Shown here: one piece after another, positions 21,983 to 45,172 of the stretch
Position numbering within the stretch: the first letter of the stretch is position 1
How the letters are laid out: every line of letters starts with the position of its first letter
Assembly (NCBI GenBank): GCA_964468125.1
Contig: CAYXVF010000007.1
Coordinates: 16,531 to 80,530, forward strand
Origin: an uncultured Bdellovibrionales bacterium
Lineage (GTDB): Bacteria; Myxococcota; XYA12-FULL-58-9; CAYXVF01
DNA: 64,000 bases
Reading direction: 5' to 3'
Notes under the pieces: generated by a model
Told to the model about the DNA's origin: nothing
The model's input: only the letters and a program-made list of their open reading frames with translations
Databases searched by the model: none
Made by a program: the position numbers and the translations under genes

Positions 21983-22288
21983 TGACCTACTTCCTGACGA
22001 GGCGCCCCGCCGGCGAAGGCGGACGCGCTCCCTTTCCTTATCGGCACCGGCAGGTGCGCTGGTGCGTGAGTCCGGCGATCGAAAACCGAGCTAAACGCCT
22101 GATTTTTGGTGGATTTCCACAGGGCTGGGCGGAGCCCAGGGCCCGCCCGGTCGAGCTGCACGCCGCGCCCGTCGCCGATCTGTGGTGGCCTGTCCACAGA
22201 TGTGTTCGACATCCTACAGGGACACACCACACTTTTTGCCGCCGATCGCGGTTTTCCGGGCCTTCTGACGTGGGTGGGTGATGGTCCG

Positions 22289-25237: not shown

Positions 25238-25249
25238 GAGATGGGAACC

Positions 25250-25963
25250 ATGGCGAAGATTCTGCTGCGCTCACCGATTCTGCTGGCGCTCGCTCTCGCA
25301 GCCTGCTCGGCGGAAGAAGTTCAACCGACCGAGCAGGTCGCGATGAGCGGTGACGATGGGACGGGCTCCTCGAGTGGCCCGAATACACCGACCGAACCGG
25401 GCGGCGGCGCGACACCGGACGAACCGACGGACCCCATCGTGCCAACCCCCGAGCCCGTTGAGGTATGCACGGCTCCCGTGGCGACGGCCGCGGTCCCCGC
25501 CGAAGCCTCGGTGGTGCGTGCTAATCGTGCCCTCGACAATTTCGTCTCCTGCCTCGGGACCGGCACACCGAGTCGCGCTTCCGTCGACGCCTGGCGTGAA
25601 AACCGCGCGGCGCTGTCGACGACCGGAGACGCGGAGACAATCGGCGCCCCGGTGCTCCAAGCGCTCAACTCGATCGCGGCCGAAGTCTGCAACGATCTGG
25701 TCGAGCTCGAAGGCGCCCCCGAGGCGACGCCGAGGATATTTGCCGGGGTCGACCTCGACGCCGGAGCCCTGAGCGAGCGCGAGTCCGTGATGCAGCGGAT
25801 CGCCCGTTCGTGTTGGGGCCGAGAAGCGAGCAGCGCAGAGCGCGAACGCCTCGCCTCCGGCCTGGATGAAGCCTTTGCGGAAACCCCGGACCCGGGAGCG
25901 CGCATCGAGGGGTTGTTCCTGTGCACCTCGATGTTGAGCTCCCTTGCAGCGATCGAGATTTAG
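25250..25963 (+). CDS. hypothetical lipoprotein (P/T/E-rich linker then Cys-containing domain)
   Basis: 'MAKILLRSPILLALALAACSAEE' is a lipobox. AGGAG SD about 10 nt upstream of ATG 25250. The listed ORF starts at 25241. Confidence 0.55.
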   Translation: MAKILLRSPILLALALAACSAEEVQPTEQVAMSGDDGTGSSSGPNTPTEPGGGATPDEPTDPIVPTPEPVEVCTAPVATAAVPAEASVVRANRALDNFVSCLGTGTPSRASVDAWRENRAALSTTGDAETIGAPVLQALNSIAAEVCNDLVELEGAPEATPRIFAGVDLDAGALSERESVMQRIARSCWGREASSAERERLASGLDEAFAETPDPGARIEGLFLCTSMLSSLAAIEI

Positions 25964-25990
25964 AGCTCAGAACGTTTGGAGTGAGGACCC

Positions 25991-27442
25991 ATGCACGAGA
26001 AAGAAATCCAAGAACGAGAAGAAGAAAAGGCGGCGCGCGAGCTCGAGCGTCGTCGAACCTCCTACCGTGAGTTTTGTGAGGCCCATGGTCGACCCAAAAC
26101 CCGACGGGAGTTTCTCGAAGCTTGCGCCATCGGCTTTGGCGGCTATGTCATGCTGCCCACCACTTCGTCGCTTCTCTTCACCCCGGAAGCGTGGGCACAA
26201 AGCGGCGAGTGCCCTGCGCCCGTTCCTGCCAACGATCCGAACCGGCTGAGCCCGATCGTGAGCATCTCGCTCGGCGGCGGCGCAATGCTCTCGGGCAACA
26301 TGGTGCCCATGGGTCAGGACGGAAACCCTCTGCCCTCCTACGACAAGATGGGCCTCGGCCGCTCCCCGAATCTGGTCTCCCGCTTCGGAGGGGCCCGGTT
26401 CTTCGAGCGCAGCCAGCTCCTGGCCGGCATCGAGTCGGTCACGACCCAGGCCACGCGCGACAACACCGCTGCGGTCATGATTGCGGTGCGCTCCGGCGAC
26501 GACTCGCGCAACAACCGCATGAATATCGCTGGCCTCACGGCCGCCGCGGGCCTCACGGGAGAGGTGCTCCCGGATCTCGGCAGCAGCCGTCACATGGATG
26601 CCTTCGTGAGCTCCGCCTCGCCCCTCCAAGTGCGACGCTTTGGAGACCTGGCCAACGCCGCTTCCGGTGGCGGCTCCGGCGCGCTCGCGGTCCTCAGCCG
26701 CGAGCAACGTGCCTCGCTCCAGAACACGATCTTGCAGCTGAACGAAGAGCAAGCCCTCACCCTGGCTCAGCGCGGCCGGGGAGACGTGGCCGGCTTTCTT
26801 GCCCGGTGCGCTTCGCAGCAGAACTACCAGAACGCGACCGCCGAGCCGCCGCCGATCGACGTGCGTCAAACGCCCGCGCTCGCCGCGGCGTGGGGCGTGG
26901 ATGCGGGCACCGGCGACGGAGACCGCGAGGTGGTCTTCGGTTCCATGTTGCTCGCGAGTCTTCGGGGCTCTGCAGGACACGCGATGTTCGAGATCGGCGG
27001 CTACGACTACCACAACAACACCCGAACCCGTGGCGACGAGCGCGACTTCGAGGCGGGCGAGCTCATCGGTCGCACGCTCGAGACCGCGGCGCTCACGGGG
27101 CAGAAAGTGTTCATCTACGTCAGCAGCGACGGCGCATGCGTATCGCCCACGTCCGATGCAGATGATGCGCCCTGGCGGTCTGACCGGGGGAGCGCGGGCT
27201 CGATGCAGCTCTATGCCTACGACCCTGCGGGGCGCCCGAACCTCGCCAATGGTTGGCAGGTCGGCTGGTTCAACGACGCACAGGCGGCGGACACGTCGGT
27301 GATCGGCGGTGCGGAATCCGGAGCGGCTGCTGCATTCTTGAACTACATGGCCTTCAACGACAAGCTCAACATCGGCCAGAACCTGGTCTCAAACGTGTTT
27401 CAACCGTCGGACATCGAGCGGGTGGTGAAGTTCGGAGCGTAG
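25991..27442 (+). CDS. Tat-secreted DUF1501/DUF1552-like protein (sulfatase/alkaline-phosphatase-superfamily-like)
   Basis: Tat motif 'TRREFLEACAIGFGGYVMLP...AWAQ'. 'EIGGYDYHNN' resembles the GG-x-D-x-H metal-binding motif of DUF1501. Such proteins are typically encoded next to PSCyt-domain proteins. Confidence 0.55.
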   Translation: MHEKEIQEREEEKAARELERRRTSYREFCEAHGRPKTRREFLEACAIGFGGYVMLPTTSSLLFTPEAWAQSGECPAPVPANDPNRLSPIVSISLGGGAMLSGNMVPMGQDGNPLPSYDKMGLGRSPNLVSRFGGARFFERSQLLAGIESVTTQATRDNTAAVMIAVRSGDDSRNNRMNIAGLTAAAGLTGEVLPDLGSSRHMDAFVSSASPLQVRRFGDLANAASGGGSGALAVLSREQRASLQNTILQLNEEQALTLAQRGRGDVAGFLARCASQQNYQNATAEPPPIDVRQTPALAAAWGVDAGTGDGDREVVFGSMLLASLRGSAGHAMFEIGGYDYHNNTRTRGDERDFEAGELIGRTLETAALTGQKVFIYVSSDGACVSPTSDADDAPWRSDRGSAGSMQLYAYDPAGRPNLANGWQVGWFNDAQAADTSVIGGAESGAAAAFLNYMAFNDKLNIGQNLVSNVFQPSDIERVVKFGA

Positions 27443-27446
27443 GCGA

Positions 27447-29351
27447 TCACTCGTAGCGAATGGCGTCGACGGGGCGGGCGCGGGCGCCTTTGAGCGCTGG
27501 GTAGAGCGTCGCCAGATGTGAAATCACCATCGCCGAAATAGCGACCAGCGCGACCTCGAGCGGCCGGACGCGCACGGTGAGTGAATCGACCATGTAGACG
27601 TTCGCGGCGATCGAAATCCTCATCGCTTCGAGCGCGCTACAGACGAGCAGTCCGAGGGCGATCCCAACGGCCGTGCCCACGCCGCCAACGAACCAGCCTT
27701 CCATCACGAAAATCCGCATGATGCTCGTGTCGCGGGCACCCATCGACTTCAGGACGCCGATCTCCGCCGACTTCTCAACGACAGCCATGAAGAGCGTCGA
27801 TGCAATGTTGAACGCCGCCACGACGATGATGAAGCTCAGTACGAGAAAGAAGACGATCTTTTGAAGCGAGAGCGCGCGAAAGATCCCCTCGTTCAGTTTT
27901 CGCCAGTCGAGGGTACGATAGGGGTAGCGTCCGATCGCGCGCAGCACGCGATTCGCGGTGAGCTCCACCCGATCCGGCTGGGTGACGCGCAGCTCGACGC
28001 CGGTCACCGCCTTCCCCATCCCCATCAGCTTCTGCGTGGCGTCGATCGACGCATAGACCAGGCGTGAGTCGAACTCGTACATGCCCGAGCGAAAGGCGCG
28101 CCCCAGGCGAAAGCGCATCCGCTTGGGGGCATTTCCCCGCGCTCCGGCAAGCCCTACGGGTGTCGAGAGCAGGACGATCGAGCCCTCTTCGAGGTCGAGT
28201 TTTTCGAAGAGCTCCGCCCCGACCACCAGTGTTGGAACGCCATCGCGGTCCTGGACTGCATCGGTGAGCGCGGCGCTCGCCTCGTCGGCGCTCGAGTAGC
28301 GCACGCAGCCTCCCTCGACGATCTCCCGACACAGATTTCCGCCGATCCCGGTAACCTCCGCCGCGCTCGGAACTTCGATCCCTTTCAGGAGAATCGTGAA
28401 GGCTCGGTCGCCGGCGCTCATCATCGCTTCGTTGAAGGTGAAGGGGCTCGCGGCAGTGACATCGTCGAGCTGTACGACCGTATCGCGAATATCGTCGTAC
28501 TCGATGAAATCGTGGCCGTATTTCTGCACCACGAGATGGGCATTGGTGGAGAGGATTTTGTCCTGAACATCCTGCTGATAGCCGCTCATCACCGCGGTCA
28601 CCGCCACCAGCGCCGCAACGCCGAGGGCCACACCGCCGATCGCAACGACCGCGGTCAGTGACACCGCCGCACTCCGATCGCTTCCGAGGAGGTGCCGCAG
28701 GCTCACCATCAGCTCGAACCCCCGGCCGCGGCGCGCCACGTCGCTGCGAAGTGCGTCGGCCTTGTACATGAAGGCGAGCGAGCCCCCCACGATGCTCATC
28801 ACCCAGCTCGCAAAGAGGCAGAGCACGGAAGTCCGGACCCACATCTCACCAAAATAGCGGTAGCCCGGAGGTCGGGCGGCGTACATGTCAAAAAATGACT
28901 CGCCCGCGCCAGGACCGATACCGAACACGCTCTGCCAGCCGACGGCGAGGTGCACGCCGACCAAGACGCCCACCAGCATCATCAGGGCCTGGGTCTCGTA
29001 ATAGGCGATCCGTCGCCCGATCCACCCCATCACCGTGCCCGCAAGCCCGAGCACCAAGACGGCGGCGGTGAAGAGCAGCTCCGGATGAGCGCCGCCCCAC
29101 TGCTCGACGTCGAAGAAAATCGCGATCCGGGCCACAGGGAGCATCACCGCCGCAGTCAGCGCCCCGAGAGCGAAGGCGCCCCAGTGGAATTGGCGGCGCC
29201 AAACCGACAAGATGAGGCCCCAGATCAAAAAGAGCCACAGGAGCTTCACAGCGGTCCAGACCTGGCCTGCGATCCATGCGAGATAGGAGCGGCGCGGCTC
29301 TTCCGCGCGAGGTTTCGGTGGGCTATTCACAGCGTCGCAGGGGGCTAGCAT
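27447..29351 (-). CDS. FtsX/LolE-like ABC transporter permease with extra N-terminal membrane domain; no adjacent ATPase
   Basis: C-terminal 400 aa: 4 TM with a large periplasmic loop 'ILSTNAHLVVQKY...' and the FtsX signature 'EIGVLKSMGARDTSIMRIFVMEGWFVGGVG'. N-terminal about 230 aa form additional helices. Start set at ATG 29351; the listed ORF to 29738 would overlap the divergent gene. Confidence 0.7.
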   Translation of the reverse strand: MLAPCDAVNSPPKPRAEEPRRSYLAWIAGQVWTAVKLLWLFLIWGLILSVWRRQFHWGAFALGALTAAVMLPVARIAIFFDVEQWGGAHPELLFTAAVLVLGLAGTVMGWIGRRIAYYETQALMMLVGVLVGVHLAVGWQSVFGIGPGAGESFFDMYAARPPGYRYFGEMWVRTSVLCLFASWVMSIVGGSLAFMYKADALRSDVARRGRGFELMVSLRHLLGSDRSAAVSLTAVVAIGGVALGVAALVAVTAVMSGYQQDVQDKILSTNAHLVVQKYGHDFIEYDDIRDTVVQLDDVTAASPFTFNEAMMSAGDRAFTILLKGIEVPSAAEVTGIGGNLCREIVEGGCVRYSSADEASAALTDAVQDRDGVPTLVVGAELFEKLDLEEGSIVLLSTPVGLAGARGNAPKRMRFRLGRAFRSGMYEFDSRLVYASIDATQKLMGMGKAVTGVELRVTQPDRVELTANRVLRAIGRYPYRTLDWRKLNEGIFRALSLQKIVFFLVLSFIIVVAAFNIASTLFMAVVEKSAEIGVLKSMGARDTSIMRIFVMEGWFVGGVGTAVGIALGLLVCSALEAMRISIAANVYMVDSLTVRVRPLEVALVAISAMVISHLATLYPALKGARARPVDAIRYE

Positions 29352-29360
29352 AGGAACGGT

Positions 29361-30419
29361 ATGGGAACCAGAGTCTCCAAGTGGATCTCCGCGGGGGTCT
29401 TGAGCTTCGCAGTGCTCAGTCCAGCGAGTTTGCCTCTGGAAGCCACCGAAGCCCAGGCGAGCGACAGCCTCCGCGCCCGCCGCTTCGACAAGGTACAGGG
29501 GGTCACGATCTCCACCCACCGCATCGGCCTCGAATGGGGAACCGATGTGATCGGTCCCACTCTCGATCACATCGCGTCCGTCGGTGCCAACTGGGTCGCG
29601 ATTCACCCCTACGCGGGAATCGGATCGGACGGCACCGTGCGTTTCGATCGCTTCGACCCGGAGGCCTACGCGGAATCTGTGCGCCGACCGATCCGAGAAG
29701 CCCACGCCCGGGGACTGAAGATCCTGGTCAAGCCGCACCTCGCCTACTGGGGCACCGGCTTCAGCTGGCGCGGCGAGATCGACTTCGAAGGTGAGGCGCT
29801 CAAACGCTTCTTCGAGGACTATCGCCGATGGACGGTCTACCTGGCCGAGCTCGCCGCAGACGCGGATGCCTTTTCCGTCGGATGCGAGCTCGACCGTCTC
29901 CTACAACATGAAACTCAGTGGCGCTCGATCATTGCAGAGGCGCGAGGGAAGACCGATGCCCCTCTCACCTACGCGGCCAACTGGCCCACCTACGAGAAGG
30001 TGCCGTTTTGGGACGCCCTCGATGCGATCGGGATCCAGGCGTACTTTCCGCTCTCGGAGAATCCATCGCCAACGCGCACCGAGCTGAAGCAGGCCTGGGA
30101 CGGCTTGATGAAGAAGCTGCGCGTCTACTCCCGGTCGAAAAACAGGACCGTGGTCTTCACCGAGCTCGGCTACAATCATTCGACCGAGACGGCGCGCAAG
30201 CCCTGGGACTACGGCGTCGAGCACAACGCTCGCGCCGCATCGCTGCAGCGGCTCTGCTTTGAGGTCGCGCTCGAAGCGGTCGACGCTGAGCCGAGCGTCG
30301 TCGGCTCATTCCTGTGGAAATGGTTCCCCGAGCCACACCCAAACGGTCGGACCTACGCGCTCGCGACCGACGAGCTCAAAGCGTTGATCTGCGATCGCTG
30401 GTGCAAGACGGAGCCCTGA
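29361..30419 (+). CDS. secreted glycoside hydrolase, clan GH-A-like (GH5/GH26/GH113-type TIM barrel)
   Basis: Signal peptide 'ISAGVLSFAVLSPASLPLEATEA'. Candidate acid/base 'VGCELDR' and nucleophile 'VVFTELGYNHS' motifs are spaced about 100 aa apart. Confidence 0.55.
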   Translation: MGTRVSKWISAGVLSFAVLSPASLPLEATEAQASDSLRARRFDKVQGVTISTHRIGLEWGTDVIGPTLDHIASVGANWVAIHPYAGIGSDGTVRFDRFDPEAYAESVRRPIREAHARGLKILVKPHLAYWGTGFSWRGEIDFEGEALKRFFEDYRRWTVYLAELAADADAFSVGCELDRLLQHETQWRSIIAEARGKTDAPLTYAANWPTYEKVPFWDALDAIGIQAYFPLSENPSPTRTELKQAWDGLMKKLRVYSRSKNRTVVFTELGYNHSTETARKPWDYGVEHNARAASLQRLCFEVALEAVDAEPSVVGSFLWKWFPEPHPNGRTYALATDELKALICDRWCKTEP

Positions 30420-30801
30420 GAGGCTCAGCCGGTCACGAAGCGGTAGCCGATTCCCCTGACCGTGAGAAAGTGGCTCGGCTTCTGCGGGTCATCTTCGAGT
30501 TTTTGGCGCAGACGGCTCACGAAGTTATCGAGTGTACGGTCGGTACCTGCGTAGTCGTACCCCCAGACCTTGGCGACGGGATCTCGAGCTCGAGCCTGTG
30601 GATTTCGCGCAGCACCTCGAAGCCATTCATCTTTGGGAGCATCACGTCGAGGAGTACCAGATCCGGGGTGTTGTCCACCGCCGTGGTCAACCCTTCATCC
30701 CCATCCGGAGCCGCCTGGACCGAATTTCCCTCGAACTTCAGGTTTCTATACAGCCCCTGGGCAATCGATGGCTCGTCTTCGATAACCAGTATTCGCTCCA
30801 T
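30419..30801 (-). pseudogene. OmpR/PhoB-family response regulator remnant (receiver N-half fused out of frame to wHTH C-half)
   Basis: 'MERILVIEDEPSIAQGL...DLVLLDVMLPKMNGFEVLREI' is the receiver N-half with Asp pocket. It then shifts frame into 'VWGYDYAGTDRTLDNFVSRLRQKLEDDPQKPSHFLTVRGIGYRFVTG*'. About 100 aa covering receiver alpha3-alpha5, linker and first half of the wHTH are missing. The junction lies at a GGGGG run near 30575. Confidence 0.6.
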
Positions 30802-31051
30802 CCGATCCCTCAACAGCCAGCGCGCATTCACGCTGCCCCCACGATGAAGCTCGCGCCGATGGAGGACGGAAGTCAGCGGCATGGGATCCAGTTTCATCAG
30901 ACGGGCTCTAGCAGCTCTTTGTCACGGGAGTATCACCGCCCGGTCGGGGTTCCTTTTTTCGACCGTGACCAAATCATGACCTGCCGGTGGACCCCTCGAG
31001 ACTGTCCTAGGGCGATTCTTTGGGCGCCTGACCGGCCCAAGGAGGACAGAC

Positions 31052-31204
31052 ATGGTCATTCGCATCAGCCTCGTCGCGGAAATCGCCCTGACCGCGCTCC
31101 CTGCCCCGGTGAGTGCCGGGGAGACGACTGCGAAGCGACAATTGTGGTTGCGCGCACTGCAGGCCCGCGACGAAGGGAACGCGGCGGCTACATCGTCTCG
31201 ATGA
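31052..31204 (+). CDS. candidate small ORF (50 aa) with strong Shine-Dalgarno
   Basis: AAGGAGG 6 nt upstream of the ATG. 'MVIRISLVAEIALTALPAPVSAGE...' has a signal-peptide-like N-terminus. High GC3. Overlaps the 3' end of the convergent ttpD by 17 nt. Not in the ORF track (<60 aa). Confidence 0.3.
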   Translation: MVIRISLVAEIALTALPAPVSAGETTAKRQLWLRALQARDEGNAAATSSR

Positions 31205-32393
31205 GACGAAGCCACTGCTTTGCAACGTTCGAGTGGGTCGCGTTCTTCGACTTGGCCGCCCGTTCGAGCGCGCGGCGGGCCGGGACCTTGCGACCCGCGT
31301 AGTAGTTGCCGATACCCATGAGCAGGTACGCCTGGCCGCTGTCCGCCAGCTTCCCGGTCTTGATCGCGGCCTCCGCCGAATCGACGGCCTTTTGCCATTT
31401 CTCCTCCTCGAGGAGGAGCTGCGTGAGGCGGAGATAGAGATCGGGAGAGCGCGCGATCTTCGCGGCCTGCTGCAGCGGGGGTACGGCTTTTTCGACTTCT
31501 TTCGCCCGCACATATGCGTCGGCAAGAATCTTCAGGTGCTCTTCGTCGCGGGGGATCGTCTTCTTTCCGAGCTCCTTTTCGAGCACCTGCGCGCCCTTTA
31601 GCGGCACGTCTTGGTAAATAAACATCTGAGCGAGCTGCTTGATGTTGTTCGGCTTGGTGACATAGCCGCCTTCATAAGCGAGCTCGAAGACCGCAAGTGC
31701 ACGCTTTTCGTCGTTGATCTCGCTGTAGAGCCCGCCGAGCTGCAGCCAATAGGTGGCCTTGGGGTAGAGCTCGACCAAACTCTTGAGCGTAGTGATCATG
31801 TCGCGCTTCTTTTTTAGCTCATACTGCACTGCGCCCATCGATTGGAGCCAATTCTCCGGAGGCTTCGGCTTCGCGGCGATGGCGATGGCGAGCTGGTTGA
31901 GCGCTTTGTTCCAATCCTTCTTCTGGATGTAGGCCTGGGCGATGATGAAGCGCGTATCCGGTTTGGGGCTCTCGGCGTCTTTCAGCCAGATCTCGAAGTT
32001 CTTGACCGCATCGTTCCAGCGCTCGAGGGCCATGTAGAGCTGGCCGAGGTTGAAGCGCATGTCGAGGATCACGTTGTCCTCGAGCGCCTCCTGCGCCAGA
32101 GACTTCTCGAAGGCAGCGGCGGCGGGCTTGTACTTGTTCTGAATGAAGTACAGGTGACCGAAGGCCTGGTACATCATCGCGACCTCGCGCTTGTCCAGGC
32201 GACCCTCTCGGTCCTTCATGCGATTGAGCTCGGTGAGCGCGTCGTCGTACTTGTTCTCGTTCATCGCCTCGAACGCGCCGTTGAGGCGCTTGAACGCCCA
32301 CTCACTCACCTGCGCGTGAGCGTCCGTGGGTGCGAGCCACAGAAGGCTCGCGAGCACGATTCCGGGAACTATTCTACGAAGCACTCGATTCAT
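31188..32393 (-). CDS. TPR-repeat periplasmic protein, TtpD-like component of TonB2-type system
   Basis: Signal peptide 'IVLASLLWLAPTDAHA'. Multiple 34-aa TPR-like repeats (W/LG/Y/A/F/AP pattern). Last gene of the exbB-exbD-tonB cluster. Confidence 0.7.
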   Translation of the reverse strand: MNRVLRRIVPGIVLASLLWLAPTDAHAQVSEWAFKRLNGAFEAMNENKYDDALTELNRMKDREGRLDKREVAMMYQAFGHLYFIQNKYKPAAAAFEKSLAQEALEDNVILDMRFNLGQLYMALERWNDAVKNFEIWLKDAESPKPDTRFIIAQAYIQKKDWNKALNQLAIAIAAKPKPPENWLQSMGAVQYELKKKRDMITTLKSLVELYPKATYWLQLGGLYSEINDEKRALAVFELAYEGGYVTKPNNIKQLAQMFIYQDVPLKGAQVLEKELGKKTIPRDEEHLKILADAYVRAKEVEKAVPPLQQAAKIARSPDLYLRLTQLLLEEEKWQKAVDSAEAAIKTGKLADSGQAYLLMGIGNYYAGRKVPARRALERAAKSKNATHSNVAKQWLRLIETM

Positions 32394-32403
32394 CCACCCG
32401 CCC

Positions 32404-33036
32404 CTAGAGATTGAACTCGAGCCGCACCGGCGTCACGCCGTACTCGATCGCTTTTCCATCCACGACCTTCGGATTGTATTTCCATTTGCGTACCGCCTTG
32501 AGGGCGGCCTGCTCGAAGACCCCACGCGGATCTGCGTCGATCACGCTCGGGTTGAGCACCTGGCCCGCGGTTCCCACCCGAAACTTCACCGTGACGTACC
32601 CGGTGATCCCGCGTTCCGCGGCCCGTCTCGGATACATCGGCTGCACCCGAACAATCGGCGTAGCGTCTTGGTCACCGGTCGGACGCGCACCAGGATTGAA
32701 GCCACCCCGTGGTCTGAAGCCGGACCCTCCGGAGAAGCCCGTCGCTTTGAAGTTCGTTTGCGGCGCGTCGATGGTTGCAGAGGCGCTGTTGTTGTCGACA
32801 GTGGAGAGCTTTGGCGGGGGGGGTTCCTTCGGAGGCGGCGTGCGATTGGGCTTCTCGCGCACCTTTTGTTGCGTCACCGAGTCCGTGGGCACGCGGATGA
32901 AGTCGGTTACGAGACCGGCGCGCTTGTCGTCGCTTTGACGACGGGCGCCTTCGATCAGCGCACGCATCCCGAGAAAGAGCGCGAAAGTGATGATGAAGGC
33001 GATCGGCGCCGTGAGCACTACCCTTGGGATCTTCAC
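32404..33036 (-). CDS. tonB: energy transducer TonB
   Basis: N-terminal TM, Pro-rich spacer 'PPPKEPPPPK', and C-terminal TonB domain 'YPRRAAERGITGYVTVKFRVGTAGQV...'. Confidence 0.85.
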   Translation of the reverse strand: MKIPRVVLTAPIAFIITFALFLGMRALIEGARRQSDDKRAGLVTDFIRVPTDSVTQQKVREKPNRTPPPKEPPPPKLSTVDNNSASATIDAPQTNFKATGFSGGSGFRPRGGFNPGARPTGDQDATPIVRVQPMYPRRAAERGITGYVTVKFRVGTAGQVLNPSVIDADPRGVFEQAALKAVRKWKYNPKVVDGKAIEYGVTPVRLEFNL

Positions 33037-33042
33037 GTCAGA

Positions 33043-33444
33043 TCATTCCCGCACCGCGGAGATGGCCACATCCGGCACGCCCGCTTGCTTGGCCGCATCG
33101 ATCACCTTCACCAGGAGCCCGTTGCGGCTGTTTCGGTCCGCCTGAATCACCACTGTTCCTCTTGGATTCTCAGCTCGCAAGCGCTCGATGTTCGCCCGGA
33201 CAGTCGAAATGTCCACACTGCGCTTGTCGATCCACACCTCGTCCGTCTCCGTGATCGCGATCAGGATGCTCGCCGATTCCTTCGACATGGCGGTCTTGGC
33301 CGCGGGGCGCTTCACCTGGACCCCCGCCTCCTTCACGAAGGACGCGGTCACGATGAAGAAGATCAGCATGATGAAAACGACGTCGAGCATCGGTGTGATG
33401 TCGACTTCGGTTTCGTCACCGCCTCCAGTCCGCACTCGCCGCAT
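33043..33444 (-). CDS. exbD: biopolymer transport protein ExbD/TolR
   Basis: 'DITPMLDVVFIMLIFFIVTASF' TM followed by the ExbD periplasmic domain. 133 aa. Confidence 0.85.
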   Translation of the reverse strand: MRRVRTGGGDETEVDITPMLDVVFIMLIFFIVTASFVKEAGVQVKRPAAKTAMSKESASILIAITETDEVWIDKRSVDISTVRANIERLRAENPRGTVVIQADRNSRNGLLVKVIDAAKQAGVPDVAISAVRE

Positions 33445-33447
33445 CGA

Positions 33448-33978
33448 TCAATCCATGTCCTGGCGGAGACGGTCGAAAAACTGCCCCACCTTTGCTTCCG
33501 CCGTGCGGACGAACTGGTTGCTGAAGTACAGCCCTGAAAGGGCGACGACCAAACCCGCCATCGTGGGGATTGTGGCCCGCGACACGCCCGAAGCCATGGC
33601 TCGCGGATTGCCGTTCCCCGACACCGCCATGACGTCGAACACCTCGATCATGCCGGTCACCGTGCCCAAGAGGCCAAACAGTGGCGCCAGCGCCACCAGG
33701 GTCTTGATCAACTGCGTGTTTCGCCGGGCCTCTTCGGCCACCCGAGACACCAGCATCTTTCGCACCTGCTGTGCGTGCCAGGAGCGGAACTCCGCGCGCT
33801 TTTTCCAGTGCTGCAGCTCCTTCGAGATCACGTTGCGATGCTCGAAGTTGAAGTACCAGATGCGCTCGAGAATCAGGGTCCAGAGAACCATCGCCGCGAT
33901 GAAGATCGCGATCAACACGGGCCCGCCTCGGTCGATGAACGCGCCCAAGGCTTCCCAAAGGCGTACGACCGGGTTCAC
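33448..33978 (-). CDS. exbB: MotA/TolQ/ExbB proton-channel protein (short form)
   Basis: 3 TM. 'LAPLFGLLGTVTGMIEVF' is the ExbB signature. ATGA overlap with ttpC. Confidence 0.85.
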   Translation of the reverse strand: MNPVVRLWEALGAFIDRGGPVLIAIFIAAMVLWTLILERIWYFNFEHRNVISKELQHWKKRAEFRSWHAQQVRKMLVSRVAEEARRNTQLIKTLVALAPLFGLLGTVTGMIEVFDVMAVSGNGNPRAMASGVSRATIPTMAGLVVALSGLYFSNQFVRTAEAKVGQFFDRLRQDMD

Positions 33979-35333
33979 GCTGCTTCCTTCTTCTCAGCGC
34001 GCTCGGCGATGATACCGGCGCTCTGCTCGGAGAGGATGTCGATCAGGTTGCGGGTGATGCTCGACAGCCACGAGTGCATGAGTACGAGCGGAATCGCTAC
34101 CACCAGACCGAGCATCGTCGTGACGAGGGCTTCCGAAATACCGCCCGCCATCTGCTTCGGATCGCCCGTACCGAAGAGCGTCAGGGTCTGGAAGGTCTCG
34201 ATCATACCGGTGACCGTACCGAGCAGTCCCATCAACGGTGCAATACCGGCGACGACCTTGATGGCCCACAGGAAGCGTTCCAGTGACGCGGATTCGCGAA
34301 TGATCGATTCGTCGAGCTTCGCTCCTAGCACTTCCGTGTCAACATCCGGGTTCTTCTTGTGCACCATCATGATGCGGCCGAGCGGGTTGCCCTCGCTCGG
34401 CTCTTTGGCCGAGCGTTGCGAGCGGACCTTGGCCGCCACCACGAAGAGCATCGCGAGACGAATCACCGCGACCAGGAAGGTGATCGCGCCGAGCGTGAGG
34501 ATGATGTAGCCAATCAGTCCTCCGAGGGCCAAACGCTCCCGCACCGTCGGCGCCGACACCAAGAGCGAAAGCAGGCTGCCCTGGGTCGGGTCGATTGCGG
34601 CCTGAACAAAGCCATCCTTTGCGTCCAGAAGGCGTTTTGCATCGGCGAGGAAGCGGCTCGCCGGCTGACGGCCGAGCTCTTTGAGCTTCTGCAGATTCGG
34701 GTCCCAGACCATGTACTTGTCGTCCGCGACCGCGGTGAAGGGCCCGATGCGCGCGACGGTGAGGTCTTCCTGCTGACCGTCGGCCCGGATCACCGGCGCC
34801 TCGAACTTCACGATCTCACCGGACGCCACGAGCTCCTGCTGCAGCATGAACCAGAGCGTTTCGAGCTGGTCCACGGACGGCAGCTTCTTGCTCGCGGCGA
34901 GGTCCGTCAGGCGCTCGGCGCGTCCGGGGTACTGAGCGCTCGACAACGAGCCGACGAGCAGACTGTTCGTCTCACCGGCGGAGGCGCGAACCACTCCGAA
35001 GAGCTCGCCGAGCGTACCCAGGCGAATCCGAAGGGTCTCTTCGAGGTCCGCGAGCTTCTTCTCGTTCTCCTCGAATTGCGCTTCCAGCGACTCGCCACGG
35101 CGCTCCTGGCGGGCGAGCTCGGCGCGAGCCTCCTGTAGCTTGCGCGCCTGCGCGTTCTTGTCGGCGAGAAAATCCGCTTCCCGCTTCTTCAGCTCCGCCG
35201 CCTGCGCGTTCCAGCCAGCCTGGACCTTGTTCAGGAGCTCACGTGCAGTGGTAGGCTTTCCCTCTTGGGCCGCAGCCGGTGAGCTGATCAAGGCCAACGC
35301 GAGCGTTGCCGCCCAAAACTCACTTCTTGCCAT
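33975..35333 (-). CDS. large MotA/TolQ/ExbB-family protein with N-terminal periplasmic coiled-coil extension (TtpC-like)
   Basis: Signal peptide plus about 250-aa coiled-coil region. The C-terminal part carries the ExbB signature 'IAPLMGLLGTVTGMIETFQ'. 452 aa, as for Vibrio TonB2-system TtpC. Confidence 0.75.
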   Translation of the reverse strand: MARSEFWAATLALALISSPAAAQEGKPTTARELLNKVQAGWNAQAAELKKREADFLADKNAQARKLQEARAELARQERRGESLEAQFEENEKKLADLEETLRIRLGTLGELFGVVRASAGETNSLLVGSLSSAQYPGRAERLTDLAASKKLPSVDQLETLWFMLQQELVASGEIVKFEAPVIRADGQQEDLTVARIGPFTAVADDKYMVWDPNLQKLKELGRQPASRFLADAKRLLDAKDGFVQAAIDPTQGSLLSLLVSAPTVRERLALGGLIGYIILTLGAITFLVAVIRLAMLFVVAAKVRSQRSAKEPSEGNPLGRIMMVHKKNPDVDTEVLGAKLDESIIRESASLERFLWAIKVVAGIAPLMGLLGTVTGMIETFQTLTLFGTGDPKQMAGGISEALVTTMLGLVVAIPLVLMHSWLSSITRNLIDILSEQSAGIIAERAEKKEAA

Positions 35334-36231
35334 CTTTGCGACCCTTTTCGTTGCTGTCTTCGTTCTCGTCTTCGGTGGACTTCACGCGCGGCCGGGCGGC
35401 CTTCGGTGGCGGCACCGGTGCGGCTGCTTCCGTGGCCGGGGCAGCGACGGGCAGTCGCATGAGGTCCGGGGCGGCCTGCTTGCGCGCAATCCGGAAGCCC
35501 TTTCGAAGCTCGTTGAAGTAGGCGCTTTCCACCGGCTTCCAGGACCGTGCCATCTGGTCCCAGAGACCCGCCTCCTCGCCATCGGCGGTCATGTAGAGCA
35601 GAACGACACGGCCGATGCGAAGGAACTGCACGGTGCGGTCTTCGCCTTCGAGCTTCGCGTTGTAGTCCTCGATGGTGCGCCCGTAGCCGTTCTCGATGGA
35701 GTAGGCCTCCATCACCTGACGGAACTTCTCCGAATCGGTGATGTTCGGGTCGGTCATCATCTTGCGCAGCCGCTCGAGACGCTCGCGACGCTCTTCAATC
35801 AAGAAGGGCACGTCGAGGTCGATGAAGGACTCGAGGGAGTCGATCATCTTGAGCATCAGCGGCGTGATCTCCCGACCCACCAACACCGCGTCTTCGATCT
35901 GCTGCTCGAGGGAGACGATTTCGTCGTTTTGGTTGGTGACGAGGGCGCTCACCTGGTCGTTGTAGGTGCGAAGCGACTCGATGCGCCGTTGCAGCTCGCG
36001 ATACTCCTGGAGCATCTGGAACGCTTGGTCGCTCAGGCTATCGATCTTTTTCTGGCTCGTGGCCGCCAGCGCATTCGCCTTCATCGTGAGCTCGATGGCG
36101 GTATCCAGGTCCCCAGCGCTCGCGCTCAATACGGGGACAGCCACGACCGCTGCTCCGACGAGCCAAACACCTCGCGGCGCCCGGAGGCGACGTTTCTCAC
36201 AAGTCATTCGCAACACTCCTAAAAATCTCAC
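35320..36231 (-). CDS. DUF3450-like periplasmic coiled-coil protein (TtpB-like)
   Basis: Signal peptide, heptad-rich 'LQEYRELQRRIESLRTYNDQVSALV', and the conserved 'SIENGYGRTIEDY' region. First gene of the ttp/exb/tonB operon. Confidence 0.65.
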   Translation of the reverse strand: MRFLGVLRMTCEKRRLRAPRGVWLVGAAVVAVPVLSASAGDLDTAIELTMKANALAATSQKKIDSLSDQAFQMLQEYRELQRRIESLRTYNDQVSALVTNQNDEIVSLEQQIEDAVLVGREITPLMLKMIDSLESFIDLDVPFLIEERRERLERLRKMMTDPNITDSEKFRQVMEAYSIENGYGRTIEDYNAKLEGEDRTVQFLRIGRVVLLYMTADGEEAGLWDQMARSWKPVESAYFNELRKGFRIARKQAAPDLMRLPVAAPATEAAAPVPPPKAARPRVKSTEDENEDSNEKGRKDGKK

Positions 36232-36255
36232 TCCGCTACAAAAAACACCTGACGC

Positions 36256-36295
36256 GAAATGACAACCGGCGCTGTCACCTTCGTGTCATTTTTTC
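36256..36295. other. AT-rich palindromic element / possible terminator (AAATGACA-N19-TGTCATTT then T-run; nested TGACA-N8-TGTCA)
   Basis: Seen at 36257-36294 in the 190-nt low-GC gap between the photolyase stop (36424) and the ttpB start (36231). Confidence 0.3.
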
Positions 36296-36423
36296 GGCGC
36301 GGCCGACCCGCTCTGACGAAATTTAAGAGCCGTTAGTACAGAATACCGGGCGATGACGTAAAGGATCGGTATTCGAAAACTTTGCAGGAGCGTTCCCTGT
36401 TCGCCTCGCGGGCGCCACTGATT

Positions 36424-37947
36424 TCAACGCTCAGCCGCCGGAGAGGGCCGTTTGCGTGACCTCGGACGTTTTCGGCTGCCATGGCGCTGATAGACCTCCG
36501 CGGCCTCCTTTTTTGCCTCCTCACGGCGTCGGACCGCAAAAATCCGCTCCCGAGCCGTCTTGTAGGCTCTCTTGTGGTCCACGACCGGCGCCGGATAGTC
36601 GCGGCCGATCACACAGCCGCTCGTCCGCTGCAGCAGGGGCGGCATGCGGTGGGGCTCGGGCAGGTGGGCGTCGTCCACCCCTTCGAGCTCCGGGACCCAA
36701 CGCCGAATGAACACGCCGCGCGGATCCTGGTCCTGCGCCTGCTTGGCCGGAGAGTAGACCCGGACCGAGTTGATGCCCGTCACCCCGGACTGCATCTGGA
36801 ATTGCGAAAAGTGGATGCCGGGCTCGAAATCGAGAAACTGCGCCGCCAGGTATTGGGCCGGCCGGCGCCAATGAAGCCAGAGATGATAGGAAGAAAAGGA
36901 GACGAGCATCGCGCGCATTCGAAAGTTCAGCCAACCGGTCTCGTGTAGGCAACGCATGCAGGCGTCGACCATCGGGTAGCCGGTCTGGCCGGCACAGAAG
37001 GCCTCAAAGCGCGCTTCGTCGAACTCGTCCTCGCGCAGACCGTCGTAGACCCGCGCCATGTTCCGAAACTCGATCTCCGGCTCGTCCTCGAGCTTCTGAA
37101 TGAAGTGGCAGTGCCAGGAAAGCCGCGAAAAAAACGACGAGAGCGACGGCAGCCAGCGACTGTCGATCTCCATTCCGTCCGCCTTCGCGGCTTTGAGCTC
37201 CGCCTCCCTTTCCTTCGCGCGCTGGTAGACCTCACGAATCGAAAGCGAGCCCCAGGCGAAATGCGGGCTCAGGCGACTGCAGCCATCCCAGCCGGCGACG
37301 GGGGTCGACATGTCGGCTCGGTAGTTGACTCCCCGCTCGGCCAGAAAAGAGTCGAGAAGCAGGAGCCCCGCCTGCGTCCCGCCGGCCTGCACCTGCCCTT
37401 TGCGCGACGGCTCGATGCGGAGCGCGCTCTCGTCGGCTTCGCCCTGCCCCTCGAGCTCCACCCCTTCGAAGTGCTCCGGGACCGGGACACACTCCTTCTC
37501 CATCTGTCGCTTCCACTTTCGCGCCCAGCCGTCGCGTTTTTTGAGTGGACGAAAGACCCCGTGCTGCATCGGTTCCCGCCACTCGATGGCGTTTTCGCGG
37601 CACCACGCAGCAACCCGCAGGTCACGGTCATAGGTCGTGCGATTGCCGGTTTCCTGATGGGACCAGAGCGTTTCGATCGGATGGGCGCGATGGATCTCCG
37701 CCAACAGGTCGGGCATTTCCCCGATCCGCCGGGTCAGACGAGCGCCACGTTGCCGAAGCTCGCCTTCGAGCTCGGCGAGGCACTCGTTGATGAAGCGCAG
37801 GTGCGAGCCGTCCATCTCGGGCGTTTGCCATAGGGAAGGCTCGTAAACGTAGAGGACGATGGTGGGTCCGCGGCGGCTCGCCTCAAAGAGCGGTGCGTGA
37901 TCCCGAAGGCGCAGATCACGCTTAAGCCAGACGAGTTGCGTTCCCAT
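36424..37947 (-). CDS. cryptochrome/DNA-photolyase-family FAD-binding protein
   Basis: N-terminal 'LVWLKRDLRLRDHAPL' is the photolyase alpha/beta domain. 'FEPGIHFSQFQMQSGVTGIN' is the FAD-binding-7 region. C-terminal Cys cluster 'FCAG...DACMRC'. Confidence 0.7.
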   Translation of the reverse strand: MGTQLVWLKRDLRLRDHAPLFEASRRGPTIVLYVYEPSLWQTPEMDGSHLRFINECLAELEGELRQRGARLTRRIGEMPDLLAEIHRAHPIETLWSHQETGNRTTYDRDLRVAAWCRENAIEWREPMQHGVFRPLKKRDGWARKWKRQMEKECVPVPEHFEGVELEGQGEADESALRIEPSRKGQVQAGGTQAGLLLLDSFLAERGVNYRADMSTPVAGWDGCSRLSPHFAWGSLSIREVYQRAKEREAELKAAKADGMEIDSRWLPSLSSFFSRLSWHCHFIQKLEDEPEIEFRNMARVYDGLREDEFDEARFEAFCAGQTGYPMVDACMRCLHETGWLNFRMRAMLVSFSSYHLWLHWRRPAQYLAAQFLDFEPGIHFSQFQMQSGVTGINSVRVYSPAKQAQDQDPRGVFIRRWVPELEGVDDAHLPEPHRMPPLLQRTSGCVIGRDYPAPVVDHKRAYKTARERIFAVRRREEAKKEAAEVYQRHGSRKRPRSRKRPSPAAER

Positions 37948-37989
37948 GGCGCCTTAGGTGCTCATGCCCCGTCGGCGATTCAAGTCGGT

Positions 37990-38511
37990 TTAGAGCTCCC
38001 GCAGATTCTCACGATAGAGACGCCCGGCCTTGCGGTAGTGCTCGGTTCCCTGGGCGATCCGTTCTCGCTCCGCCGCGCTGGTCTCGCGGATCACCTTTCC
38101 TGGCACTCCGAGCACGAGGGAGTTGTCCGGGATCACCTTGCCCTCGGAAACGAGTGCGTTCGCTCCGATGATGCAGCCAGATCCGATTCGCGCGCCGTTC
38201 AAGATCGTCGCCCCGATCCCGACCATCGACCCCGCCCCAATGCGGCAGCCATGAACCATCGCGAGATGCCCCACGGTGACGTCGCGTTCGAGCACGCAGG
38301 GAAAACCCGCATCCGCGTGCAACACCGCTCCATCCTGAATGTTCGATCCCTCGCCGACGACGATCTCCTCGACGTCCCCTCGAACGACCGCCGAAAACCA
38401 AACGGACGCCTGGTGTCCGAGTCGAACGCGTCCGACGACCGTAGCGCTCGGCGCGACGTACCACTCGGCGCTGTCAAAGTGCGGCCTAGGCTCGCCGAGT
38501 GCGTAGATCAT
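37990..38511 (-). CDS. gamma-class carbonic anhydrase family (left-handed beta-helix, YrdA/PaaY-like)
   Basis: Hexapeptide repeats 'IGAGSMVGIGATILNGARIGSGCIIGANALV', His ligands 'VLHAD...GHLAMVHGC'. ATGA overlap with acsA. Confidence 0.8.
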   Translation of the reverse strand: MIYALGEPRPHFDSAEWYVAPSATVVGRVRLGHQASVWFSAVVRGDVEEIVVGEGSNIQDGAVLHADAGFPCVLERDVTVGHLAMVHGCRIGAGSMVGIGATILNGARIGSGCIIGANALVSEGKVIPDNSLVLGVPGKVIRETSAAERERIAQGTEHYRKAGRLYRENLREL

Positions 38512-44992: not shown

Positions 44993-45172
44993 GCCACCGG
45001 TGTGGCCATACTTCGGCTGTGGTTTCGCCTCTCGGGCTCACCACGATTTGACGGATGCGGGAGCGAGCCATTTCGCATTTCGGGCTTGGCCGTGTCAGTA
45101 TGGACGCGCGGCGGGCCCGCCGCGACGCAAGGATGGGAGCCAGACGCGGGAGGAGCCCGCGGAGGCCTGGAG

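Follow-up and report, generated by a model that had tools for sequence, protein, structure and literature searches.

The six-gene operon

The DNA analysed here is a stretch of 64 kb (64,000 nucleotides; hereafter the window) from a metagenome-assembled genome of the Myxococcota. Its minus strand carries, between positions 31188 and 36231 (ORF coordinates), six co-directional, tightly packed genes, neighbours overlapping or lying at most 10 bp apart, which form a single unit in the order ttpB-ttpC-exbB-exbD-tonB-ttpD. These genes and two features beside them are:

35320..36207, minus strand: ttpB, exported DUF3450 coiled-coil protein, 295 aa (PF11932; conserved ATG)
33975..35333, minus strand: ttpC, ExbB/TolQ-like motor subunit with an exported DUF3450-like N-terminal domain, 452 aa (PF01618)
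33448..33978, minus strand: exbB, short ExbB paralogue, 176 aa (PF01618); 4 bp of overlap between its start and the ttpC stop
33043..33444, minus strand: exbD, 133 aa, one transmembrane helix (PF02472)
32404..33036, minus strand: tonB, 210 aa, membrane anchor, short Pro-rich linker and TonB C-terminal domain (PF03544)
31188..32393, minus strand: ttpD, exported TPR protein, 401 aa, 9.8% Lys (13 TPR-type Pfam families)
36208..36423, minus strand: spacer between the photolyase gene and ttpB, 216 bp, GC 0.523; position of a TonB-dependent transporter (TBDT) gene in relatives
30425..30817, minus strand: remnant of a two-component system (tblastn with proteins of the related locus L084, frames read directly, and blastn collinearity)

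TtpB matches PF11932 in Pfam almost from end to end (E = 5.8e-85, model positions 5-240 of 241), and its N-terminus has a hydrophobic segment ending in ASA that fits a signal peptide. The most likely start of ttpB is the ATG at 36207, because an AGGAG precedes it and both this Shine-Dalgarno sequence and the start codon are conserved in three related loci (L084, L086, and L091); the GTG at 36231 merely opens the longest ORF. For TtpC, an earlier note on this DNA had let its interpretation stand or fall with the 452-residue protein being MotA/ExbB-like in HMM searches, and Pfam indeed places a MotA_ExbB domain (PF01618) at residues 328-433 with an E-value of 1.1e-29. Its N-terminus gives a weak DUF3450-like match (Pfam, E = 2.6e-4), and hhalign aligned this N-terminal domain with the TtpB family over 181 columns with a probability of 92% and an E-value of 6e-7; by the hhalign comparison, the domain is homologous to TtpB. 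The AF2 model of TtpC (mean pLDDT 84) shows a helix at residues 30-128, an alpha/beta domain at 139-260, and three long helices at 264-308, 355-387, and 392-451, which hold three hydrophobic segments. When this model was submitted to Foldseek, TolQ and ExbB chains came out on top, with target-normalised TM-scores of about 0.6-0.7 among the best matches.

The short ExbB (PF01618, E = 2.7e-23) has the motif GLLGTVTGM in common with TtpC. ExbD (PF02472, E = 3.1e-29) contains a hydrophobic segment at residues 19-37, with an Asp inside the transmembrane helix (MLDVVF). TonB contains a TonB_C domain (PF03544, E = 6.9e-21), and the best match of this C-terminal domain among solved structures is 2K9K, the TonB2 of V. 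anguillarum (E = 5.3e-25; next match, 6.5e-11). Its N-terminal membrane anchor is devoid of His, a residue present in 10 of the 76 TonB anchor windows of the Ttp-type family, where it mostly replaces the Gln of an LMQxLI motif. TtpD was matched by 13 TPR-type Pfam families, the best with E = 2.9e-11.

Homologous loci

We fetched 80 homologous loci from Gamma- and Alphaproteobacteria, Myxococcota, Opitutales, and Pseudobdellovibrionaceae. Eight of these were broken by contig ends, and all 72 complete ones have the order ttpB-ttpC-exbB-exbD-tonB-ttpD, with ttpD last. Over nearly their full lengths, and listed from ttpB to ttpD, the window's proteins are 36, 39, 43, 56, 30, and 27% identical to those of the V. 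campbellii TonB2 cluster, and 43, 47, 48, 65, 33, and 29% identical to those of a Pseudoalteromonas cluster whose six genes bear the same product annotations. Even the most divergent pair, TtpD and its V. campbellii counterpart (27% identity), aligns over nearly the whole protein with E = 1.6e-21. The earlier note had proposed a TonB2-style system from gene content and order, and the domain assignments, the gene order, the near-full-length alignments, and the structural match of the TonB C-terminal domain all bear this out.

Identities to the proteins of a V. maritimus locus, L015, are 42, 47, 46, 54, 36, and 31% in operon order, so that all proteins but ExbD resemble L015 more than V. campbellii TonB2. 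From its identities and operon layout, L015 is probably of the TonB3 type, as its divergence from V. campbellii TonB2 reproduces the published TonB2-versus-TonB3 values almost exactly; the comparison runs through these values and not directly through V. vulnificus TonB3. Under a narrow definition of Vibrio TonB2, which demands greater similarity to TonB2 than to its TonB3 paralogue, five of the window's six proteins would fall outside. The locus does display the features of the Ttp-type systems at large: a DUF3450 protein encoded by the first gene, a TtpC of about 450 residues with a C-terminal MotA/ExbB channel domain and a large N-terminal domain in the periplasm, short ExbB, ExbD, and TonB proteins next, and a TPR protein of about 400 residues last, all in a single co-directional unit.

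Chromosomal context

The operon has a photolyase gene as its upstream neighbour and a convergent GH113 gene downstream. The window, L084, L086, and L091 have the same flanking genes, namely those for CcmE, an acyl-CoA synthetase-like protein, a hexapeptide transferase, and photolyase on one side, and for GH113 and MacB on the other. What differs is the interval between photolyase and ttpB, which measures about 3.7 kb in L084 and about 2.2 kb in L086, both with a gene for a TBDT of the generic Plug-and-barrel type, versus 216 bp in the window. The ttpB-proximal 90 bp or so of this spacer are conserved, positions 36294-36204 aligning locally to the sequence between the TBDT gene and ttpB in L084 and L086.

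The earlier note had remarked that no TonB-dependent receptor is adjacent, which proved correct: Pfam revealed no TBDT Plug or barrel domain in 26 neighbouring ORFs, a home-made HMM for TBDTs gave no match in any window ORF of at least 70 aa, and tblastn with the relatives' TBDTs found none in the window DNA. As a pointer to function, however, this absence is not informative, since at least three quarters of the homologous loci have no TBDT within 8 kb. A loss specific to this lineage is the best reading of it. L091, which comes from an independent assembly of a second genome with 83% nucleotide identity, likewise has no TBDT gene at this position; its genes are intact and its spacer is collinear with that of the window.

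Downstream of the operon, the nearest relative, L084, encodes a two-component system. With L084 queries, tblastn located histidine kinase residues 686-708 at 30817-30749, the last 23 codons of the gene, and response regulator residues 1-75 at 30801-30577 (88% identity) and 175-227 at 30586-30428 (81% identity). The OmpR-type response regulator has thus suffered an internal deletion of about 100 codons and a frameshift, and the downstream genes for a hypothetical protein, a TetR protein, and the histidine kinase are deleted. The window's lineage has lost the downstream two-component system and, on the best reading, the upstream TBDT gene, while keeping the six operon genes.

Upstream of ttpB, the best Fur-box candidate agrees with the 19-bp consensus at 10 of 19 positions, which is the mode of 330-bp windows over the 64 kb, although this E. 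coli-type consensus may not suit Myxococcota. A simple scan detected no sigma-70-like promoter for the operon.

Proposed function and alternative explanations

We propose that the locus encodes an intact Ttp-type (Vibrio TonB2/TonB3-type) six-gene TonB energiser, inherited over the long term within the Myxococcota, that works for transporters encoded elsewhere; we estimate the probability of this reading at roughly 0.82. It builds on the gene content and order, the homology, the predicted topology and fold, the normality of synonymous sites, the shared chromosomal context, and purifying selection. A proton-driven motor in the inner membrane would consist of TtpC, the short ExbB, and ExbD, possibly with the 5:2 stoichiometry of the ExbB/TolQ kind. 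Anchored beside this motor, TonB would cross the periplasm, and its C-terminal domain would pull on the TonB box of TBDTs in the outer membrane. TtpB, the N-terminal domain of TtpC, and TtpD, all predicted to be exported, may constitute an accessory periplasmic scaffold. Because the upstream transporter and the downstream regulators are deleted, the motor would have to serve transporters elsewhere in the genome, whose presence is an assumption, as the analysis covered 64 kb of it; their substrate may be an iron chelate, a carbohydrate, or another compound.

It is unlikely that the motor instead energises a task other than import, such as secretion via an Oar-like transporter or, like other myxobacterial Exb/Tol homologues, an envelope or motility function, secretion and motility having been considered in the earlier note. 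A precedent exists in M. xanthus, in which the protease PopC is not secreted properly unless a TonB system and the transporter Oar are both available (PMC6434023). A role outside siderophore uptake would gain weak support from the lack of a Fur-box-like site and from the closer similarity of five of the six proteins (not ExbD) to an apparent TonB3-type paralogue, TonB3 of Vibrio having shown no activity in iron transport in the conditions used (PMC6957404). What speaks against a non-import task is that the C-terminal domain of TonB is a standard TonB_C, the nearest relatives encode a generic Plug-and-barrel transporter directly upstream, the Oar-linked cluster of M. xanthus differs in having four genes and none of the three ttp genes (PMC6434023), and the locus contains no pointer to motility genes.

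The losses on both sides of the operon could also mark it as an orphan that has begun to decay, its function gone with the cognate transporter and regulators. This is what the missing TBDT gene of L084 and L086, absent from L091 as well, the vanished hypothetical, TetR, and histidine kinase genes, and the broken response regulator would lead one to expect. Yet all six reading frames are intact and agree in length with their orthologues, and the six genes, with dN/dS values of 0.04-0.25, are under purifying selection, although dS exceeds 1 and is saturated, so that a recent relaxation would be undetectable. Moreover, the conserved block upstream of ttpB, its Shine-Dalgarno sequence, and its start codon have been retained, the receptor-less layout has persisted, as L091 has it with intact genes, and a transporter gene beside the operon is missing from the majority of homologous loci in other bacteria, too. 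Decay is therefore quite improbable, and an intact energiser the preferred reading.

Base composition and origin

A distinct evolutionary origin had been suggested in the earlier note from low GC and a Lys-rich codon choice, with codon statistics and a TtpC phylogeny named as the checks. Total GC is indeed lower in the operon (0.618 versus 0.646 in 40 other window genes; Mann-Whitney p = 2e-4), and Lys is enriched 2.4-fold (6.0% versus 2.5% in the background; z = 5.5 for the 9.8% in TtpD). The choice of codons, in contrast, does not differ from the background: GC3 is 0.807 versus 0.795 (p = 0.31), synonymous codon divergence gives p = 0.25, and AAG makes up 0.84 versus 0.73 of the Lys codons (p = 0.16). 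The GC deficit is located in GC1 and GC2. The lower GC of the operon, the Lys richness, also that of TtpD, and the low GC of the ttpB spacer listed above are thus amino-acid and intergenic effects and not matters of codon choice.

In phylogenetic terms, too, the suggested distinct origin found no support. TtpC is 46-76% identical to members of a clade labelled Myxococcota/Deltaproteobacteria and 37-48% identical to all others, and it nests in this clade with moderate support (67 of 100 neighbour-joining bootstraps), several clade members being metagenome-assembled genomes labelled just 'Proteobacteria bacterium'. Its grouping with its two nearest relatives was recovered in 100 of 100 bootstraps. 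When the neighbour-joining tree was rooted on V. campbellii TonB2, the longest internal branch separated that sequence from all others.

Recent horizontal acquisition from a lower-GC marine bacterium, for instance a Vibrio- or Alteromonas-like gammaproteobacterium, would explain the lower total GC and the abundance of Lys, and it is in marine Gammaproteobacteria that Ttp-type loci are commonest. Such a transfer is largely refuted and very improbable in view of the background-like synonymous sites, the recurrence of Lys-rich TtpD and TonB in four other Myxococcota loci of 60-65% GC, the position of TtpC closest to and nested in Myxococcota sequences, and a chromosomal context common to relatives at 59-85% protein identity. 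The operon looks long resident in its Myxococcota genome.

That a different MotA/ExbB machine, such as Tol-Pal or the anti-phage system Zorya, has been misread as a TonB system is refuted for practical purposes: the TolQ and TolR models match partially (63 and 62 bits) but far below their cut-offs of 221 and 127, as does YbgF/CpoB on TtpD (E = 8.9e-9; 36 bits versus a 90-bit cut-off), Pfam found neither TolB nor Pal encoded within the cluster or next to it, the TonB_C domain is present and has TonB2 as its closest structural relative, and PADLOC gave no Zorya (ZorAB) match for any of the six proteins, TtpB showing weak coiled-coil matches only.

Comparison with known systems

With Tol-Pal (TolQ-TolR-TolA-TolB-Pal-CpoB), the window's system shares a TolQ/TolR-like motor, a periplasm-spanning protein of the TonB/TolA type, and a periplasmic TPR protein recalling CpoB/YbgF, but it has neither TolB nor Pal, and its C-terminal domain is of the TonB type. 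With E. coli ExbB-ExbD-TonB, it has in common a channel subunit of the MotA/ExbB family, the Asp in the membrane helix of ExbD, and the TonB_C domain, and the C-terminal half of TtpC superposes on both ExbB and TolQ chains. Unlike the E. coli system, it comprises two ExbB paralogues, one with an exported domain of about 260 residues, and two additional exported proteins (DUF3450 and TPR), and its TonB anchor is without the His of the E. coli motif. The Oar-associated system of M. xanthus is likewise a Myxococcota Ton system untied to siderophore genes; from its description, it is set apart by its four genes, tonB1-exbB1-exbD1-exbD2, with two ExbD proteins and a position next to Oar, and by having no TtpB, TtpC, or TtpD (PMC6434023).

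The closest likeness is to the Vibrio systems. TonB2 of V. vulnificus, V. anguillarum, and V. cholerae (ttpB2-ttpC2-exbB2-exbD2-tonB2-ttpD2) consists of six proteins of the same kinds, encoded in identical order, and lengths in V. campbellii (255/455/184/134/206/390 aa) are similar to the 295/452/176/133/210/401 aa of the window, although identities are only 27-56% and the host is a Myxococcota genome. In V. vulnificus, siderophore uptake through TonB2 depends on every one of the six proteins, as genetics show, and the TonB2 operon has a Fur box and is iron-induced (PMC6957404), unlike the window operon, which has no Fur-box-like site. The TonB2 system of Teredinibacter turnerae additionally contributes to growth on cellulose, and iron does not regulate it (PMC10734418). 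Judged by TtpC identity, the broad marine clade is closer to the window's system than Vibrio TonB2 in the strict sense is, and TonB3-type relatives in Aeromonas, Pseudoalteromonas, and other marine bacteria have the same six genes. A transporter gene heads the operon in Vibrio TonB3 (PMC6957404) and in the nearest Myxococcota relatives, but not in the window.

One may speculate that Ttp-type operons are not a speciality of vibrios or marine gammaproteobacteria but an old, self-contained trans-envelope force transducer found across several phyla, in which the scaffold of TtpB, the TtpC N-terminal domain, and TtpD couples a His-less TonB to a motor with two ExbB paralogues, and that the Myxococcota version serves non-iron substrates or export via transporters swapped in and out upstream of ttpB; as a whole, this broader picture is doubtful. 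The locus itself, ordinary apart from the lost neighbouring receptor gene, adds a Myxococcota copy to a known system.

Identification of the operon

The six genes ttpB-ttpC-exbB-exbD-tonB-ttpD lie on the minus strand at 31188-36231, run in one direction, and overlap or are at most 10 bp apart. By homology, they would encode a TonB energiser driven by the proton motive force. The features of the locus, including a broken regulator gene downstream, are as follows.

35320-36231, minus strand: ttpB, longest ORF 303 aa; Pfam DUF3450, E 5.8e-85
33975-35333, minus strand: ttpC, 452 aa; Pfam MotA_ExbB at residues 328-433, E 1.1e-29
33448-33978, minus strand: exbB, 176 aa; Pfam MotA_ExbB
33043-33444, minus strand: exbD, 133 aa; Pfam ExbD
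32404-33036, minus strand: tonB, 210 aa; Pfam TonB_C
31188-32393, minus strand: ttpD, 401 aa; TPR protein (Pfam)
30425-30817, minus strand: broken OmpR-type response-regulator gene and kinase tail; the pair is intact in the near relative L084

For comparison we used the operons of a 2.06-Mb Vibrio campbellii replicon and a Pseudoalteromonas replicon, found by tblastn of a plasmid collection; the annotation of the latter lists exactly these six products in the same order. From ttpB to ttpD, the window proteins align over nearly their full length with those of V. campbellii (ORFs of 255, 455, 184, 134, 206, and 390 aa) at 36, 39, 43, 56, 30, and 27% identity, and they are 43, 47, 48, 65, 33, and 29% identical to those of Pseudoalteromonas. 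The best solved structure for the C-terminal domain of TonB is that of V. anguillarum TonB2 (2K9K, E 5.3e-25; next match 6.5e-11). Together with the Pfam domains, these alignments bear out the content and order described in the earlier note, and the identification as a Vibrio TonB2-style system is correct. All matches of the operon proteins to the NCBIfam equivalogs for TolQ, ExbB, TolR, ExbD, and TonB were sub-threshold, so that none of these curated narrow families claims them. PADLOC matched none of the six to a defence system.

For ttpB, the ATG at 36207 (295 aa) appears better placed than the start of the longest ORF, as AGGAG precedes it and relatives conserve it, their gene calls for ttpB being 295, 296, and 290 aa long. 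Hydrophobicity and N-terminal sequences indicate signal peptides, as predictions, in TtpB, TtpC, and TtpD, and predicted membrane helices in ExbD (one), TonB (one), and TtpC (three). A simple scan revealed two hydrophobic segments in the short ExbB, a third being expected from homology. The membrane helix of ExbD contains an Asp. TtpC and the short ExbB both retain the GLLGTVTGM helix; in the GISEALVTT helix, the Glu is kept in TtpC and is replaced by Arg in the short ExbB. The TonB anchor of the window has no counterpart to the His in the SHLS motif of E. coli, and a His is present in this stretch in 10 of 76 family members, mostly substituting the Gln of an LMQxLI motif. A conserved VTxxLFxLMQxLI-type anchor motif was observed in the TonB N-termini of 76 related loci (among L001-L082) and the window (32404-33036).

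The 452-aa TtpC is indeed MotA/ExbB-like, as had been proposed: besides its Pfam match, its AlphaFold2 model (mean pLDDT 84) matched chains of TolQ and ExbB in a Foldseek search of the PDB, and among the best of these matches the target-normalised TM-score was about 0.6-0.7. Past the signal peptide, the model displays a helix of about 100 residues (30-128) and a small alpha/beta domain (139-260), followed by a C-terminal part in which three long helices hold the membrane segments. The N-terminal part gave a weak DUF3450-like Pfam match (E 2.6e-4), and profile-profile comparison established its homology with the TtpB family (181 collinear columns, probability 92%, E 6e-7); it had no solved-structure counterpart among the top PDB matches listed by Foldseek. 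A DUF3450 N-terminal appendage on MotA/ExbB-like subunits is on record without an assigned function (PMC12505986).

Reduction of the locus

In L084 and the related locus L085, the interval between the photolyase gene and ttpB encodes a 990-aa transporter with Plug and barrel domains; in the near relative L086, it encodes one of 657 aa. The L084 and L086 transporters are collinear homologues (plug 45%, barrel 26% identical), so this slot was probably occupied by a transporter ancestrally. The barrel of the shorter protein carries many deletions, and its gene may be degenerating. This 657-aa transporter (L086, 7064-9037) is a shortened form of the 990-aa one, with many barrel segments gone. The window and the near relative L091 have only a spacer of about 220 bp at the same place, and tblastn detected no transporter remnant in the whole 64 kb, confirming that no TonB-dependent receptor adjoins the operon.

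About 90 bp adjoining ttpB (36294-36204, minus strand) are conserved in L084 and L086, where they lie in the spacer between the transporter gene and ttpB, and also in L091; ttpB thus retains its own upstream element, probably a promoter, operator or 5' UTR. The conserved block (36204-36294, minus strand) contains GGTTGTCATTTCGCGTCAGGTGTTTTTTGTAGCGG. Scanning of 30000-37000, including this block, revealed no sigma-70-like promoter site, and terminator-like sites in the same region were no more frequent than expected from shuffled sequence. A Fur consensus scan upstream of ttpB gave no site above background, and Rfam gave no match in 29000-38000 at E up to 1.

Downstream, between the operon and a GH113 gene, L084 carries, besides a second tonB, one hypothetical and one TetR gene and a small ORF, the genes of a histidine kinase (708 aa) and an OmpR-type regulator (228 aa). 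The window keeps three pieces of the two-component pair: the 3'-terminal 23 codons of the kinase gene and, from the regulator, residues 1-75 and, in another frame and after a deletion of about 100 codons, residues 175-227. Since the transporter is absent and only pieces of the regulators are left, with the six genes intact, the locus in the window is a reduced version in which the motor is intact and the receptor and regulators are gone. This lineage-specific loss is its only locally unusual feature. The three-genome comparison shows that, in this Myxococcota lineage, the motor is retained as the adjoining transporter shrinks or vanishes, which fits a general-purpose energiser rather than the motor of a single receptor.

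Composition and ancestry

The earlier note had hinted at a distinct origin from the low GC and Lys-rich codon choice of ttpD and the region upstream of ttpB. We compared the six genes with the 40 other confidently framed genes of the window.

Table. Composition of the operon genes versus the other genes of the window
Total GC: 0.618 versus 0.646, p 2e-4
GC2: 0.420 versus 0.476, p 0.006
Lys: 6.0% versus 2.5%, p below 1e-4
GC3: 0.807 versus 0.795, p 0.31
Synonymous-codon divergence: 0.099 versus 0.082, p 0.25
AAG share of Lys codons: 0.84 versus 0.73, p 0.16

The low GC and the abundance of Lys stand, TtpD reaching 9.8% Lys (z 5.5); the claim about codon choice does not, since GC3, synonymous divergence, and AAG share are all close to background, and the anomaly is one of amino-acid content. 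Four other Myxococcota loci, with a GC of 60-65%, likewise encode Lys-rich TtpD (6.8-10%) and TonB (6-10%). With a GC of 0.523, the spacer upstream of ttpB falls near the bottom of the intergenic range of the window (0.48-0.68), as expected of a promoter region.

Neighbour joining of 99 TtpC sequences groups the window protein with those of two Myxococcota MAGs (100/100 bootstraps in a 53-taxon subset), and the enclosing clade (67/100) comprises MAGs labelled Myxococcota or Deltaproteobacteria and a few labelled only 'Proteobacteria'. More telling than the tree is the chromosomal context. The contigs of the two nearest relatives, about 75% identical in TtpC, have operon-upstream genes in common with the window. 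In L086, these encode CcmE, an acyl-CoA-synthetase-like protein, a hexapeptide transferase, and photolyase; the contigs of L084 and L085 begin further in and have the hexapeptide-transferase and/or photolyase genes. Downstream, the window, L084, and L085 share the GH113 and MacB-like genes. L091, from a third, independent assembly, is 83% identical at the nucleotide level and collinear over photolyase-spacer-ttpB-ttpC-exbB. For all six genes, dN/dS versus L084 and L086 is 0.04-0.25, values that are approximate, as dS exceeds 1. Tree, context, and dN/dS together argue for long residence under purifying selection, not recent import, and with synonymous measures at background a foreign origin is not supported. 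For annotation, low GC and Lys-rich exported coiled-coil or TPR proteins in a high-GC genome do not by themselves point to a foreign origin; third-position and synonymous statistics must agree.

Several long ORFs elsewhere in the window have gene-like GC3 and no Pfam match: 45002-48973 (+), 23645-27442 (+), 4344-5834 (-), and 7841-9526 (-). One of the Pfam-less ORFs encodes a 1323-aa protein in which Lys makes up only 0.3%; three others (530, 240, and 483 aa) lie in a row downstream of the gene (22106-23608) for a PSCyt1 cytochrome-c-domain protein.

Distribution of the module

In a word-indexed protein search, at least 7994 of 8000 scored candidates were found at E 1e-10 or better, the nearest named matches being Myxococcota MAG proteins. 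Scanning one genome from each species confirmed at least 593 loci, the best 80 of which include many from marine Gammaproteobacteria and also some from Alphaproteobacteria, Myxococcota, one Opitutales MAG, and one Pseudobdellovibrionaceae MAG. Gene order, scored with HMMs from three reference operons, was ttpB-ttpC-exbB-exbD-tonB-ttpD in all 72 of these 80 loci that are uncut by a contig end. The operon also occurs in three more Myxococcota MAGs, where its neighbourhood is unrelated; one of them (L088) has no ExbD in its gene calls. The full module in unchanged order is thus a form of the TonB machinery with a wide distribution; ttpB, ttpC, and ttpD have been described (PMC10734418) as peculiar to vibrios and certain marine bacteria.

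Duplications also occur: a second exbD in tandem in 11 of 80 loci (among L008-L073), and a second tonB in tandem inside the operon of L084 and L085 (9164-10478). The Myxococcota genome Arabian9_MAG_39 carries two complete paralogous operons on separate contigs (L006 and L007), whose TtpC proteins are 50% identical, recalling the TonB2/TonB3 pair of some vibrios.

Function and relation to known systems

We know of no mechanism and no solved structure for the three extra components, TtpB, TtpC, and TtpD. In a reasonable model, an ExbB-type pentamer of one or both paralogues (TtpC and the short ExbB) would surround an ExbD dimer, TonB would dock in a family-specific manner, and the paralogous DUF3450 domains and the TPR protein would build a periplasmic scaffold.

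No substrate class could be assigned to the relatives' transporters with NCBIfam, all equivalog scores being far below the cut-offs; the best partial matches were to B12, haem, and siderophore receptors, in the plug domain only. At least three-quarters of the related loci have no transporter within 8 kb by a home-made HMM that is crude, so that counts of adjoining transporters are lower bounds. Genetics in V. vulnificus showed all six proteins to be required for TonB2 siderophore uptake (PMC6957404). The TonB2 gene of Teredinibacter turnerae, which is not regulated by iron, supports growth on cellulose as well (PMC10734418).

In V. campbellii, the six ORFs are preceded by the genes of a two-component pair and by an ORF of 685 aa matching other TonB-dependent receptors. 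This layout is that reported for V. parahaemolyticus, where peuRS lies upstream of peuA, and peuA is in one operon with the TonB2 genes (PMC4141801). Five of the six window proteins are closer to those of a V. maritimus locus (L015) than to V. campbellii TonB2. L015 itself is 35, 37, 42, 53, 26, and 27% identical to V. campbellii TonB2, nearly matching the 30, 37, 40, 57, 27, and 23% published for TonB2 versus TonB3 of V. vulnificus (PMC6957404), from which we infer that L015 is TonB3-type. Under the conditions of that study, the TonB3 paralogue did not contribute to iron transport (PMC6957404). The absence of a Fur-box-like site upstream of ttpB, the scarcity of adjoining transporters, and the closeness to L015 lend mild support to a role that need not be siderophore uptake; they do not support a link to gliding motility. 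PopC/Oar secretion in Myxococcus xanthus relies on another cluster, which has four genes (PMC6434023).
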